This document shows positions 13,531 through 63,865 of a stretch of 64,000 nucleotides of DNA, piece by piece. Under the pieces are notes generated by a model. That model was not told the DNA's origin. It saw only the letters and a list, made by a program, of their open reading frames with translations, and ran no database searches. The stretch lies in the IMG/VR virus record IMGVR_UViG_3300025429_000009, positions 28,999-92,998 of that record; one strand, 5' to 3'. Position numbers and translations under genes: made by a program. This DNA comes from a virus. Lineage: Duplodnaviria > Caudoviricetes. Within the stretch, counting starts at the first letter, position 1, and every line of letters starts with the position of its first letter.

Positions 13531-13929
13531 ATGGGAAGATCCTTAAATCTACAATGGCAAGATGAAGCTGCATGCAAAAGCATGTCCATCGAAAACTACG
13601 ATGACTTTTATCCAGATAGGGGTAGGTCAGCAGAGAAGCAGCTCAATGGCATATGCAGCTCATGCCCAGTAAAAGATGATTGCTTAAACCACGCATTGAG
13701 CTATGAAAAATATGGCTATTGGGGTGGCACCAACGCTAAGCAACGTGATAAGATGCGCAAACAACTAGGCATAGAGTTGCTTGATATTGATTACGAATTC
13801 ATCATGAAATACGCTGAAGAAAAAGCTAGAATTGAAGAAGCTATTCAGGCTAACAAAATGAAGCGTGGCCCTAAGGGTCCTAGAAAGAAGAAGGAAGTAT
13901 GCGAATCGGACTTGTTGTCCCAGTTTTAA
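13531..13929 (+). CDS. whiB: WhiB-family transcription factor
   Basis: WQDEAAC...FYP...ICSSCPVKDDCL..AL...YGYWGG: four Cys plus G[IVY]WGG. Confidence 0.93.
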   Translation: MGRSLNLQWQDEAACKSMSIENYDDFYPDRGRSAEKQLNGICSSCPVKDDCLNHALSYEKYGYWGGTNAKQRDKMRKQLGIELLDIDYEFIMKYAEEKARIEEAIQANKMKRGPKGPRKKKEVCESDLLSQF

Positions 13930-55801: not shown

Positions 55802-56041
55802 TTAGACATACTTTCTTACTTTCTTATACTTGAAACGTTGCTTGGGTGACATGCCACCATAAATACCAGTTTTGATACTGTTATCTAATGCATAGTCAAG
55901 GCAATCTTGTTTGACTTTACAAGCATTGCAGATTGCTAACGCTTTTTTAAGCTGTGGTGTTGTCTCTCCTAATTCTAGGAAAAAGATATTGATATCTTCA
56001 CCACGACAATTAGCTTGCTCACGCCACATTTCATTCTTCAT
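55802..56041 (-). CDS. whiB: WhiB-family transcription factor (second copy)
   Basis: WREQANC...FF...ICNACKVKQDCLDYAL...GIYGG. Confidence 0.92.
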   Translation of the reverse strand: MKNEMWREQANCRGEDINIFFLELGETTPQLKKALAICNACKVKQDCLDYALDNSIKTGIYGGMSPKQRFKYKKVRKYV

Positions 56042-57082: not shown

Positions 57083-57216
57083 GATATCTCCTTACTGGAT
57101 AGGTTGAGTGGGCCCGTTGAGATTCAGGTGGAACCCATACCCAAGACCCCGTTTAATTATTAATGGTGTTAGGTCCCTCACCATGCACAAGCTTCAAACC
57201 TTGTGCTGCGTTGTTG

Positions 57217-59370: not shown

Positions 59371-59706
59371 TTATTCCTCCTCATCTTGGCAATCGCAACC
59401 GGGTGCATGCCATGTTTTTTCTGCTAACTTTTCACCGTACAAGTGAACAGATATTGATTGGAGCTCAGTCATAAAGATACCAAGCAATTTCTTACCGATA
59501 TCAGATAGTTCTGAGATGCGCTCACCAACCATGCTAATTAAATCGGGATTGTTAACCTCATCCCAATTAGCACTTGCTTCATCAAGCCAAAAAATAATCT
59601 TGCTGAAGTCTAAAAATAGGTCTTTCATCACACCTAGCGTCTCGCCGTAGCGAATACGATCAGTTGACTCGGTACCTAATGCGGAAAAGAATTCATCCTG
59701 ATCCAT
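59371..59706 (-). CDS. Hypothetical protein
   Basis: AAGGGG RBS; C-terminal H..GCDC. Confidence 0.7.
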   Translation of the reverse strand: MDQDEFFSALGTESTDRIRYGETLGVMKDLFLDFSKIIFWLDEASANWDEVNNPDLISMVGERISELSDIGKKLLGIFMTELQSISVHLYGEKLAEKTWHAPGCDCQDEEE

Positions 59707-59729
59707 TGTTTTCCCCTTATATCTAGTGG

Positions 59730-60660
59730 GTGTACGGGCAGTTGTTACGTCATACCCAGGACGAATAGTTTGGTCTTCCTCAAAACCATTACAAAACGTT
59801 AACCAAAGTGCTGGTTACCCACACCAATACTAAGCAATTGGAAGCTCCCATCTATTCAGTAGGTTTCAGGTTACCTTCATACGCTTCCCCGTATGATGAG
59901 TCCGTGTTGCATCACATCGCGCATATGCTGTCCATGCAGACACAAGAGAGGGGGCAGTTTAAACACATACCCAGGTGCTGAGCGTCTTCACCAGTACACG
60001 CGCTCACTTGCACGATGGTTCCTCTACCTTCCTACCAACAAGATGGATTCTCTCGCTCCTCCGCGTGTGTTCTTTACGGCATCCACCATTTTCCGACATG
60101 AGCTTCCCCTCATGCTGAGATAGCAGTACGTTGCTAGCGGGTGGGTGCTTCGTCCAGCGCCACCATTGGACCGCGCCTATGCACACAACGAAGCATGCAT
60201 AGGCTCACCACGTTTTTAGTCGGTGGCCGTGACTATAAGGGGACAGGTTTAAGGAGAGCCTCCGTTCCTACATGAGCTTCCCCTCATGCTGAGTGTGTTA
60301 ACTTATAATCTCATAGGATCATATTCCGGTACATCATAAGTAACAACAGCTCCCGTACACACAACAAAGCATGTACGGGATCATCGATTAAGTCGATGAG
60401 ACTACCACGTTTTAGTCGGTGGCCGTGACTATAGTGGCCAGTTTTAAGTGTTCTTGGCAACCACTACACAAGCTTCCCCTTGTGCTGAGACTTTAATAGG
60501 TAGTATCTGTCTACCAGTACACAGTCCTATATACTGCAAGTACCATGTAAGCATGCGCCCTCTCTACATCATCGCAATAGGTATCCCTGCTTTTTAGGCG
60601 AGTCGAAAAACGCCGGATAGGGTTTAACGCCACCCTCCACCACGTCACACGAACAACACC
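59730..60660 (-). ncRNA. Array of structured RNA modules (GGGAAG-loop hairpins and H-type pseudoknots)
   Basis: About 1 kb with no credible ORF; four copies of a covarying 23-nt hairpin at 59878, 60097, 60271 and 60467; duplicated 28-29-nt pseudoknot at 60207 and 60404. Confidence 0.65.
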
Positions 60661-60701
60661 AAACAATAAATGCTTGGAGTTAGTTCGTAAGAGCTAAGAG
60701 A

Positions 60702-61019
60702 CTATAAGTCAAGCGCAGTACGGGCTGCCGCAATCATATTCTGATAAGAATCCATAGTGGTAGCATTAATGTTGACTTTATCAAATTGACCTGCCATGAA
60801 CTCAATAGTATCAATAAGTTCTGAGCCGACGCGCTGATAGGACTTAGACTTGAACTTAAAAACACTAGCCTTATCCTTGATATCATCAATCATGTTATCG
60901 AACTCGGTTACCATGTCGAGGAGACGGAGAGCAACCTCCCTCATCCCCTCGACATTGTCAAGCTCGTTGATCTGCTGACGGATGTCATCAGCCATCTTCT
61001 TTGAATCTTTATTAGTCAT
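60702..61019 (-). CDS. Hypothetical protein
   Basis: GAAAGG RBS before MTNKDS. Confidence 0.7.
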   Translation of the reverse strand: MTNKDSKKMADDIRQQINELDNVEGMREVALRLLDMVTEFDNMIDDIKDKASVFKFKSKSYQRVGSELIDTIEFMAGQFDKVNINATTMDSYQNMIAAARTALDL

Positions 61020-61481: not shown

Positions 61482-62969
61482 TTAGTTGAACTGACCAAGC
61501 AAAGCCTGGCGAATGTAACCAGCAGGCTTGTTGATAAGCTTGCCACGCTTGAACATGGCAACGGCTTCTTCAACGCTAGGAACCATGATCATGCGGTGCT
61601 TCTTGAGAAGCTTGGCACACATGATAGCTAGCTGGTTGTTGAAGCCGCCGTAGTTGTTGTTGACGCAACCGTCAGAGATCCACACCATATCCTCGTTGAA
61701 TTTACGGTGACGGATACCCCAAGTGAGAGCAGTACCGTCGACGCCGTTACCGCCGCCGCCGATGTGACCGATCTCCTTGACACGCCAGCCACGGTTGGCA
61801 AGGATCCAGGCGTTGGGCTCGTCTTCGCCCACCTCGCTGTACGCAAGAATGAGTGAAGCAGGGCAAGCCTGGATGATATCGTTGAGATCCTGCTCGCTGA
61901 GGCTCATTGAGCCTGAGATGTCAACAATAACAACACCGCCCTTGGTCTTGACCTTGCGCGTAAAGATGCGACGACCTGGGTCAGTCAACATACGCGATGG
62001 GTTACCAAGGCGACGACCGACGTCAGACGAACGCTTCTTACGACGCATGTAGCCCTCGACCTCGACAGTCAATGGCAAGTCGTCAGCGATACGCAGAGGA
62101 CCGAAGCCACTGGCATCGTCAGGGAACTCGAAGAAATCATCGATGTCGTCAGTATCGAGAGGACTATTCTTGTTGTTTAACTGACCACGCTGGAGAGACT
62201 CATCGTCAATCTCACCATAGTTAGCAGCACGGTCGTCTTCGTCCTTGCGCTGCACAGCCTTGATGTCGTCAGGAGCGTAGTTACCGTTGGACAAGTACCC
62301 GACGACGTCATTGGCTGCGTACAACGCATGACGAAAGCCTGCAGGACCCATGACACCGTGACCGTAGTCGATAGGTGTAGTGCTACCTAAACGACGAGGG
62401 TTGTCACTGAAGTTGCTGTGAATGCGCTTGCTGAGCTTGCGCAACACCTTGGACCAGTCAGGGTTGACTGATCGTACACCAGCAGCGAACGAGTCGAAAG
62501 CCTTGGACTCTGCGTTAAGCAGCGTGAACTGCACAGCATCGTCCCACGCTTGTGGCGTGTTGGCAGTCGCAAGTCGTCGACCCTTGGTCTTCTCGGAACC
62601 GTCAACCTCTTCCTCCATGCCACGAGCAACAGCGAACTGCTCGGTCAATGCATTAACACGAGCATGCTCTGCAGCACGCAACAGATTGGGACTTAAGCTG
62701 TTGTTGTACTCCTTGGAGATCTGACCGTAGAACTCAGGGTCCATCGGTGAGATACGCGCACGAACGAGTTGGGTCAGCTGCACACGCTGGGAATGACTGT
62801 CCCCCCGAAGAGGGACAGTCATCACACCAGCGGTGAAGTCAACACCAACACCGAGGTCGCCGTGTGAGTCGACAACGTCCCATGAGATGGGCGTCTCGAC
62901 ATCGTCACGGAAACCGGTAACTACCCCGGGAAGAGGTAGGATTTCGTTGTTGTTGTTGACCTCGGACAT
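61482..62969 (-). CDS. VWA-domain protein (MoxR partner)
   Basis: MIDAS motif VDISGSM, GGGNG.DG, WISDG. Confidence 0.85.
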   Translation of the reverse strand: MSEVNNNNEILPLPGVVTGFRDDVETPISWDVVDSHGDLGVGVDFTAGVMTVPLRGDSHSQRVQLTQLVRARISPMDPEFYGQISKEYNNSLSPNLLRAAEHARVNALTEQFAVARGMEEEVDGSEKTKGRRLATANTPQAWDDAVQFTLLNAESKAFDSFAAGVRSVNPDWSKVLRKLSKRIHSNFSDNPRRLGSTTPIDYGHGVMGPAGFRHALYAANDVVGYLSNGNYAPDDIKAVQRKDEDDRAANYGEIDDESLQRGQLNNKNSPLDTDDIDDFFEFPDDASGFGPLRIADDLPLTVEVEGYMRRKKRSSDVGRRLGNPSRMLTDPGRRIFTRKVKTKGGVVIVDISGSMSLSEQDLNDIIQACPASLILAYSEVGEDEPNAWILANRGWRVKEIGHIGGGGNGVDGTALTWGIRHRKFNEDMVWISDGCVNNNYGGFNNQLAIMCAKLLKKHRMIMVPSVEEAVAMFKRGKLINKPAGYIRQALLGQFN

Positions 62970-63730
62970 TAGAGCGTCACCGCTGGGTCCAGGGTACCGA
63001 CCTGAAGCGCCGAGACGATCGAGTTGGCCAGCTTAACACCGAACACCATGGTAGCTGCACGCATTGGCGTGAAGTTGGGCGAACGACGCAAGGTCTCGAA
63101 GGCGTGGAACGCACGAAGCGAAGCACGACCATCAGCCTTACCAGCCACAACCATAGCAGCAAGCTGCTGGAGTTCTGGTGGCAACGCAGCGACCAAGGCA
63201 GCTGGGTGAGCAGCGTCAATCTTGATGGAAACAGGGAAGCGGTCCTTGAGAGCCTGAGGCAGCTCGTCAGGGTGCTCGATGTTGGACGTCATGATTGCCG
63301 AGAAGCCAGGCAACGGACGGTACATCTCACCGGTGAACGGGTGCATGTACGACGCAGAAGCCTCGCTGTCAAGGAAGGCAAGCAACGTAGCGAATACGTC
63401 ACCGCCTGCCTTGTCGATCTCGTCAACGACAAGACGACCACCCTGGATACCGTTACCATTCCAAGCGCGCAGAGCAGCACCAGGCGTGAACCCGAAACCA
63501 CCCTGCTCGTTAGGCAGGATAGCACCGGACACGTCGGCATTGGTCATGTCCTCGGTGCAGATTAGGCGGAACGCACCGCCTGCAACGTCACCGTGGTGCA
63601 TGGCCGAGTACGTCTTACCGATGCCGGGAGCACCGATAAGAAGCACGCGGTTGATGCCTGCTTCGATGACATCCTCGAAGTCGATCCAGCATTGTGGAAC
63701 GGGGATGCCGAGGTAAGTGGCTTCAGCCAT
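62969..63730 (-). CDS. MoxR/CobS-like AAA+ ATPase
   Basis: GAPGIGKT, VVDEIDKA, MTSN, ALKDRF, SLR. Confidence 0.9.
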   Translation of the reverse strand: MAEATYLGIPVPQCWIDFEDVIEAGINRVLLIGAPGIGKTYSAMHHGDVAGGAFRLICTEDMTNADVSGAILPNEQGGFGFTPGAALRAWNGNGIQGGRLVVDEIDKAGGDVFATLLAFLDSEASASYMHPFTGEMYRPLPGFSAIMTSNIEHPDELPQALKDRFPVSIKIDAAHPAALVAALPPELQQLAAMVVAGKADGRASLRAFHAFETLRRSPNFTPMRAATMVFGVKLANSIVSALQVGTLDPAVTL

Positions 63731-63793
63731 GTTAATCTCCTATGGGTTGTTAACGATGCATAGGTTGCACCGGGACACTGATTTGTGTACCAG

Positions 63794-63865
63794 CACTGCA
63801 TGTGGGACTCGAACCCACGTTTACCACTATATGAGTGGTCGCTCTACCCGTTGAGCTAATGCAGT
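63794..63865 (-). tRNA. Atypical tRNA-like gene with non-canonical anticodon loop (UCAUAUA)
   Basis: Minus strand: ACTGCAT/ATGCAGT acceptor, TAGCTCAACGGGTAGAGC D arm, ACCAC-TCATATA-GTGGT, GTGGG-TTCGAGT-CCCAC T arm. Confidence 0.75.

Follow-up and report, generated by a model that had tools for sequence, protein, structure and literature searches.

What does a phage keep in a long intergenic gap whose reading frames are not conserved in its relatives? The question is raised by a freshwater phage, IMG/VR record IMGVR_UViG_3300025429_000009 (Caudoviricetes; 92,998 bases, with an estimated completeness of 62%), of which the last 64 kb (64,000 nucleotides), here called the window, were analysed. 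On the minus strand of the window a gap free of open reading frames (ORFs) extends from 60701 to 59707, flanked by minus-strand ORFs of 106 aa and 111 aa. The best frame in the gap, with 90% nucleotide identity in the relative L017, is disrupted there by two stops and 1-nt indels; the gap is therefore non-coding, and a coding role was ruled out as its frames are not kept in relatives. It constitutes a strand-specific RNA region (hereafter the island) that combines hairpins bearing GGGAAG loops with at least five compact H-type pseudoknots (knots). We consider these folds very probably real, and tentatively propose that the knots may act as mechanical roadblocks to enzymes arriving from the 5' side, comparable to the coremin element of eukaryotic RNA viruses.

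Enrichment and covariation of the pseudoknots

A sequence-only reading of this locus had placed five pseudoknots on the minus strand, and all five were confirmed by reading the sequence. Candidate A1 (60437-60465) combines a first stem (S1) AGTG/CACT with a loop 3 of TAAAAC and a second stem (S2) GCCA/TGGC. B1 (60404-60431) has the S1 AGTC/GACT, a 9-nt loop, the loop 3 AAAAC and the S2 GCCAC/GTGGT, and B2 (60207-60235) has an exact 24-nt repeat in common with B1 (family D3) and one additional A in loop 3. C1 (59952-59978) displays the S1 GCAC/GTGT, the loop CTGGGTAT, the loop 3 TTAAAC and the S2 GGGTA/TGCCC, and C2 (59736-59763) carries the S1 CGTC/GACG, the loop and tail of C1 and the loop 3 TAACAAC; their respective scores are 42.3 and 34.4 bits with the covariance model R1 described below. 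The same reading held that C1 and C2 share S2 and differ by compensatory changes in S1, and this is borne out: loop and tail are identical, and S1 reads GCAC/GUGU in one and CGUC/GACG in the other. The general build of the island pseudoknots is an S1 of 3-4 bp, a loop 1 of 1-3 nt, an S2 of 4-6 bp and an A-rich loop 3 ending in AAAC.

A strict scan for H-type pseudoknots (4-bp S1, loop of 7-12 nt, A-rich loop 3 of 4-8 nt with AAA, S2 of at least 4 bp) recovered four distinct pseudoknots from positions 59700-60720 of the minus strand, missing C2 because its loop 3 lacks AAA. In 500 dinucleotide-preserving shuffles of this region the mean was 0.26 +/- 0.48 and none reached four, and the rate in the rest of the window predicts 0.39 pseudoknots per 1021 nt (Poisson P = 7e-4).

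For the type represented by C1 and C2 (the CUGGGUAU type or type C; window copies 59978-59952 and 59763-59736), the covariance model R1 was built from 42 copies, with three S1 pairs modelled and S2 left unpaired in the model. At E values up to 0.01 it yielded 85 matches from 58 sources, giving 84 distinct rows; two further candidates (L062 and L069), in which loop 3 is not A-rich and which lie inside long frames, were excluded from the alignment A5. Over these 84 rows 98.3% of 755 cells pair, a value reached by none of 500 shuffles, and controls with slid partners pair at 21-62%. All three modelled S1 pairs are paired throughout (100%), and each of the three shows compensatory double changes (in 28, 26 and 16 of the 84 rows); the letters of S1 were never fixed in the search patterns. 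In S2 97.4% of the cells are paired: A-U takes the place of G-C at three positions (in 2, 7 and 1 rows), a U.G pair is replaced by C-G in 12 rows and by U-A in five, and no cell at these core pairs is unpaired. The helix is also kept in the variants GAGCA/UGCUC and GGACA/UGUCC and in one with an inserted A-U pair. The conservation of the loop and tail letters themselves is inflated in this alignment, because many rows came from patterns that fix those letters.

The type represented by B1 and B2 (GCCAC/GUGGU or type B; 60431-60404 and 60235-60207) was examined in alignment A8, whose 10 copies were chosen by eye in the window and in seven relatives. Here 98.9% of 89 cells pair as compared to 16-42% in slid controls, five of nine pairs show compensatory changes, and S2 is fully paired (100%) with two pairs doubly changed. 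The B copies of L015 and L017 are instructive in that their S2 has changed from GCCAC/GUGGU to GCUAU/AUAGC with pairing retained, a replacement touching three of the five pairs by two double changes and one change of G.U to G-C. Candidate A1 shows little covariation: it has three homologous copies only (window, L015 and L017, by eye), in all of which the CCA/UGG core of the putative S2 is invariant. Both predicted stems of types B and C are thus supported by base-pair changes in relatives, and the existence of the predicted folds in the island is shown by covariation.

Spread and gene-boundary placement of the C-type knot

The C-type knot was also found in unrelated IMG/VR phage contigs and in cellular metagenome-assembled genomes (MAGs). 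A gapped pattern gave at least 120 matches in IMG/VR; 31 of the 120 matches listed have a perfect 4-bp S1, which is expected in about two of them (0.375 to the fourth power), and in nearly all of these 31 loop 3 ends in AAAC. Five whole phage records contain 2-6 C-type copies each, and the record of the window just the two in the island. With a tighter pattern 20 stretches were recovered from GTDB genomes, 18 of them with at least three of the four S1 pairs, in MAGs labelled, among others, Omnitrophota, Deltaproteobacteria, Saccharibacteria and Planctomycetales; some of the contigs concerned measure 150-416 kb. As judged from pattern matches, the exact B-type sequence is confined to this phage lineage: the 17 stretches found comprise three known relatives and 14 chance matches without S1.

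The 27 matches that score 15 bits or more in the window and 11 relatives are all located on the gene strand. In 40 of the 85 copies of the C-type knot, a frame of 60 codons or more closes ahead of S1, its stop codon ending at a distance of 4-14 nt and never of 0-3 nt; the same spacing occurs at 78 of 1700 random positions. An ORF starts within 120 nt downstream in 64 of the 85, mostly at 18-32 nt. The proteins encoded upstream are mutually unrelated, and so are the downstream genes. Elsewhere the knot lies 3-6 nt upstream of tRNA genes (L040, L109, L144) or directly upstream of promoter-like TTGACA...TAAAAT boxes (L036, L075, L091). Stop-codon readthrough was rejected, as in L011 the frame that follows the stop closes again inside the knot (by eye).

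Given the stop codons close before 40 of the 85 copies and the tRNA genes or promoter-like boxes that follow others, the knots could alternatively mark processing sites or shield the upstream cistron from 3'-5' exonucleases at its 3' end. The repeated cassettes would then be joints for the shuffling of genes or modules, for which the promoter-early stem-loops of T4-type phages offer a parallel, and the re-ordering of island modules between relatives and within a lake population (see below) is in line with this. However, H-type knots with an A-rich loop 3 resist force from the 5' side, as known from the frameshift and coremin literature; moreover, no nuclease site is defined and several island knots have no cistron to guard, and we regard this explanation as unlikely.

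The mostly fixed distance of 18-32 nt to the next start codon raises a further alternative, namely that the C-type knot is a translational operator or very small riboswitch, binding a protein or metabolite and thereby controlling a start 20-35 nt downstream, or termination and re-initiation. The conservation of the loop letters across phyla, nine cellular loci in which the knot stands at the end of a micro-ORF ahead of Rrf2 or GrdB-like genes, and the blocking of ribosomes by coremin in vitro (PMC10520033) are all compatible with such control. Against it, the Shine-Dalgarno sequence lies outside the knot, the downstream genes are mutually unrelated, and the copies in the island, before promoters and before tRNA genes have no start codon to control, which makes a general role of this kind quite improbable.

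Two local arrangements of the C-type knot may be recorded here. On the minus strand of L036, an unrelated complete phage record of 117 kb, three successive small genes between 3700 and 5000 end 5-10 nt before C-type knots; two of the three knots have the S2 variant GAGCA/UGCUC, and directly behind two of the three stands a TTGACA -35-like box, with TAAAAT in addition at the first. In the nine MAG loci mentioned above (L155, L156, L161, L162, L163, L164, L167, L169, L170) the stop of a conserved micro-ORF, 18-31 codons long and with the core AHC.EGC, either overlaps the knot or lies directly before it, and the knot precedes Rrf2, GrdB-like or small membrane genes by 7-37 nt. From its predicted layout, this combination of micro-ORF and knot looks like a leader-peptide device. 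A larger riboswitch in these loci was also considered, and the idea was dropped since the conserved domain upstream of the knot is actually the micro-ORF.

Resemblance to coremin and a possible roadblock

The earlier sequence-only reading had interpreted the knots either as exoribonuclease-resistant RNAs (xrRNAs) or as antitoxin-like decoys. The first half of this interpretation is supported by resemblance alone, and is the best-supported reading, because the stem, the loop ends and the UUAAAC spacer match those of coremin and its Watson-Crick variant; the second half found no support, with neither tandem repeats nor, among the flanking ORFs scanned, a ToxN-like protein. Coremin (xrRNA-C), 20 nt in length, is found in plant and other RNA viruses of eukaryotes, such as beet necrotic yellow vein virus and the cucumoviruses. 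Its first hairpin (hp1), of 3-4 bp, closes a loop of the form YGAD or YGNNAD and is followed by an A-rich spacer that is conserved; a second hairpin (hp2) is required, A15-A17 and C18-A20 are essential bases, and the element stalls Xrn1 and scanning ribosomes in vitro (PMC6546385, PMC10520033).

Several of these properties recur in the phage knots. A GUC...GAC hp1 is present in 32 of the 84 type C rows, with CGUC/GACG in C2 and AGUC/GACU in B1 and B2. The loop opens with a pyrimidine, which is C in all 84 type C rows, and its last two bases are A followed by D, with the penultimate A in 83 of 84. A UUAAAC spacer is followed by U(A/G)C; of the 84 type C rows, 72 have AAAC and 76 have CU(A/G)C, counts that are partly forced by the search patterns, and the 11 relatives found through their proteins show the spacer without this bias. 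The elements total less than 30 nt, occupy untranslated or intergenic sites and are sometimes in tandem, and the B-type knots, unlike most C-type copies, have a stable hairpin 2-5 nt behind them, in the manner of hp2. Among the differences, the loops of 8-9 nt form 5-6 Watson-Crick pairs here, and the carriers are DNA phages and bacteria, in which the relevant enzyme would be RNase J rather than Xrn1.

Watson-Crick coremin (xrRNA-WCC) is closer in one respect. In this variant, found in a screen and in two viral species, the loop forms an antiparallel 3-bp S2 with bases following the AAA spacer, as mutation and rescue proved; the variant stimulates -1 frameshifting and also stalls Xrn1, and of the two activities Xrn1 resistance alone requires hp2 (PMC10321173). 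The phage knots likewise pair the hp1 loop in antiparallel fashion with bases after the spacer, but S2 measures 5-6 bp with C as loop 1, in contrast to 3 bp and G in the viral variant. The flaviviral xrRNAs offer a more distant comparison. They too form tandem folds and generate a non-coding RNA (the subgenomic flaviviral RNA, sfRNA), at the head of which they stop nucleases; their fold is a three-way-junction ring of about 70 nt and therefore differs (PMC5760640, PMC11702639). One flaviviral xrRNA also stops the bacterial RNase J1 in vitro (PMC5760640).

The known RNA families do not account for the island or the knots. Searches with Rfam, including flaviviral xrRNA and preQ1, gave no match in the island at E values up to 10 and none at the knots of relatives or MAG loci, and the RF03003 (GP20-b) family has no match at any knot in five records. 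Compact H-type pseudoknots with short stems, a loop 1 of 1-2 nt and an A-rich loop 3 in the S1 groove occur at luteoviral frameshift sites and in the gene 32 leaders of T-even phages. The knots described here share this build, and their spacing to the preceding A-site codon resembles that of frameshift sites; unlike those, they have no slippery site, follow stop codons and stand in a variable gene context.

Together these comparisons suggest the following mechanism. The A-rich loop 3 would lie in the groove of S1 and brace this stem, so that the knot would resist enzymes threading the RNA from the 5' side. An actinobacterial host is probable, since the record contains two predicted WhiB-family genes (window positions about 55835-56026, minus, and 13555-13755, plus), and among 14 control genomes the WhiB family has a match in Corynebacterium alone. 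In such a host each knot would halt RNase J, a 5'-3' exonuclease, and possibly ribosomes as well, which would spare the RNA downstream. The single C-type knot of an ordinary phage operon would stand after the footprint of a terminating ribosome and before the ribosome-binding site that follows, where it would plug the RNA and give the next cistron a protected 5' end. The spacing to the stop codon would, from the known ribosome footprint, place the knot at the mouth of the terminating ribosome with no need for unwinding, and the spacings to stop and start codons suggest that it remains folded in the space separating two ribosome footprints. Within the island, a series of knots together with hairpins that look protein-binding might give rise to one or several nuclease-resistant non-coding RNAs, comparable to the tandem xrRNAs and sfRNA. 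A stronger form of the proposal, which we consider doubtful, is that bacteria and phages possess true exoribonuclease-resistant RNAs sharing the sequence and fold of coremin, and that in this actinophage several of them are linked with protein-binding hairpins in a precursor of 1 kb that host RNase J would trim to stable decoy RNAs, a prokaryotic counterpart of sfRNA.

A number of observations weigh against the roadblock proposal. The C-type loop CUGGGUAU has 8 nt and a U at position 2, as opposed to the 4 or 6 nt of coremin and the G that it needs there, although one coremin octaloop is still resistant to Xrn1 (PMC10520033). Most C-type copies are without the hp2 on which the Xrn1 resistance of coremin and of its Watson-Crick variant depends, and are followed by an A-rich leader and a Shine-Dalgarno sequence. 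In some unrelated phages the knot sits just upstream of a sigma-70-like promoter or a tRNA gene and thus would not shield the 5' end of the downstream transcript, so that a role at 3' ends or in processing fits these predicted sites better. Finally, the conservation of S2 and loop across phyla, which is partly due to ascertainment, exceeds the apparent needs of a purely mechanical block.

Organization of the island and its relatives

Four hairpins with identical GGGAAG loops open the units of the island: hairpin 1 (60467-60484) opens unit A, hairpin 2 (60271-60288) unit B, hairpin 3 (60097-60114) unit C and hairpin 4 (59878-59895) unit D, all on the minus strand like the features below. The units span 174-219 nt and are heterogeneous. 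All four hairpins contain the word GGGGAAGC, which occurs five times in the window as against 0.88 expected, four of these in the island, and belong to family D1, in which the loops are invariant and the stems covary. The claimed order of hairpin, pseudoknot, pseudoknot holds for the first two units, starting at 60484 and 60288.

At the 5' end of the island a leader pseudoknot (60619-60646) combines the S1 ACG/CGT, a loop with AGGG, the loop 3 TAAA and the S2 tail CCCT; by eye, its homologues in L015, L024, L016 and L018 keep loop and tail and have changed S1 (ACGAT/ATCGT, CATGAT/ATCATG). Directly 3' of B1 lie two hairpins (60351-60398), CATCGA/TCGATG at 60398-60382 and a 12-bp stem at 60380-60351, which occupy the place of hp2 in coremin; the same layout follows the B-type copies in L009, L011, L015, L018 and L024. 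In unit B the weak, pseudoknot-like A2 (60241-60269) has the S1 AGGA/TCCT, the loop 3 TAAA and a short S2 AGG/CCT. Copies in L015, L016, L018 and L024 keep S1 and the 3-bp S2, and have U.G, U-A or a mismatch as the fourth S2 pair (by eye). A 9-bp hp2-like hairpin with covarying copies (family D2; 60175-60204) begins 2 nt 3' of B2. Unit C contains A3 (60067-60095), with the S1 CGG/CCG, the loop 3 TAAAGAA and an S2 of at most GTG/CAC; its loop GTGGATG and tail AACACACGC are kept in L016, L017 and L018, and it remains a weak pairing candidate. Directly upstream of C1, a module of about 85 nt (59981-60066, minus) is 85-90% conserved in L015, L016, L017, L018 and L024 and includes a 5-bp stem GAGCG/CGCTC enclosing a 16-nt loop. 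From the end of C2 to the ATG of the 111-aa ORF (59706) there are 29 nt. A detached group of a hairpin and two pseudoknots (57109-57210) lies 2.6 kb from the island, before the ribosome-binding site of the next gene. Its second knot pairs GGGT/ACCT in S1 and GGGTTCC/GGGCCC, with one T bulged, in S2; it also terminates the islands of L017 and L018 and has a variant in L015, with S2 changes to U.G, C-G and A-U (by eye).

The relatives were found through a 495-aa protein without a Pfam family, encoded 0.8 kb upstream of the island. Together with an AAA_5 (MoxR-like) ATPase (61482-63730, minus, for the two genes) it lies directly upstream of the island in all relatives found. The protein has 79 homologues at E values up to 1e-10, of which an alignment of 24 led to 16 IMG/VR loci representing 11 distinct relatives, near-identical loci being set aside (L010, L013, L020, L021, L022, and L001-L008 where identical, were excluded from the counts). 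In all 15 loci examined the island is downstream of the homologue and contains 1 to 6 exact copies of GGGGAAGC, and CTGGGTAT is present in 14 of the 15, L018 carrying a paired variant instead. The island modules are common to these relatives and change their order between genomes. In a metagenome from another freshwater sample, a lake (run X11), a contig of 1,895 nt from a related strain has the modules re-ordered and one 200-nt unit absent (window 59908-60382); unit number is therefore variable in natural populations. GenBank phages gave no match to the island or the 495-aa protein, and a search guided by the small downstream protein found nothing.

As the 495-aa protein has a C-terminal vWA-like motif, a Ro60/Y-RNA system was considered and rejected: a profile of the 24 homologues against the PDB gave no Ro60 chain at E values up to 1, none of the 24 matches TROVE in Pfam, and four show a weak VWA_CoxE signal. 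A tmRNA or tRNA identity of the island was ruled out with ARAGORN, which placed the three tRNAs of the window outside the islands and found no tmRNA or tRNA within them. A promoter scan of the island gave a count not above that of shuffles, and a terminator scan none that was convincing. Among the side observations, both ARAGORN and Rfam call a tRNA at 63793-63865 (minus), reported as tRNA-Tyr, whose anticodon ATA is unusual, and a T-arm-like stretch at the 3' end of the island in L004 (2405-2450) is not called a tRNA or tmRNA by ARAGORN. The type II hammerhead ribozyme matches L002 1005-1066 with 40.0 bits, above the gathering score of 37, and L004 8323-8395 with 35.5 bits, below it; the window has none at the gathering threshold.

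The combination of invariant GGGAAG loops with covarying stems, 1 to 6 exact copies of the loop word in relatives and a unit number that differs between strains would suit a protein sponge or ribonucleoprotein scaffold similar to CsrB/RsmZ. The island would then present its four identical loops, and perhaps the knot loops, to a host or phage RNA-binding protein, and the knots would be binding sites or rigid spacers, not nuclease blocks. The retention of the C-type loop and S2 letters across phyla, as for a sequence-specific partner, points the same way. Yet no candidate binding protein was found, the flanking ORFs having no Pfam family, and the C-type knot mostly stands singly at gene boundaries, remote from hairpin arrays. 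This explanation appears doubtful, if worth weighing.

Two known kinds of phage or bacterial RNA array were also compared with the island. Type III antitoxins such as ToxI and CptI are small pseudoknotted RNAs arranged as exact tandem repeats of 34-45 nt beside a toxin gene, and the array could in principle be a decoy of this kind that neutralises a ToxN-type endoribonuclease of the host. The likeness is a general one, of small pseudoknots with A-rich stretches repeated in a phage. Tandem Repeats Finder gives no rows for 59500-60900, the units of the island are long and dissimilar, and the flanking ORFs (10 by Pfam, 7 by PADLOC) include no ToxN/AbiQ-type gene. Furthermore, the exact B-type sequence is restricted to the lineage, with 14 of its 17 hits elsewhere due to chance, and the commonest pseudoknot type stands singly after stop codons in many phages and bacteria, all of which renders an antitoxin mimic highly improbable. 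The non-coding RNA arrays of UG27 reverse transcriptases in gut phages consist of a variable number of units, which measure about 150 nt and combine a hairpin with a pseudoknot (bioRxiv 10.64898/2026.09.22.753630). They resemble the island as intergenic phage arrays of structured units that are gained and lost singly, and differ in that the units here are heterogeneous; an array of this type was rejected as no reverse transcriptase (PF00078) has a match in the 92,998-base record, itself 62% complete.

To our knowledge, programmed exonuclease resistance is known solely from eukaryotic RNA viruses. No paper linking coremin to phages or bacteria was found in the literature, the link is unmentioned in two genome-language-model preprints, and the 10,006 candidate viral RNAs of PMC10690425 may include the knot. 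The finding reported here is a covariation-supported fold of less than 30 nt, with the core of coremin, that recurs at the boundaries of genes in many DNA phages and in bacteria of several phyla. Should this knot stall RNase J or ribosomes, it would represent a general and so far unlisted way to shape prokaryotic messages, and would also provide a very small portable stabiliser for synthetic operons. The phage lineage studied here offers a natural experiment, having multiplied and diversified the knot inside a non-coding RNA, in which stalling, RNA accumulation and the effect on infection are directly testable.

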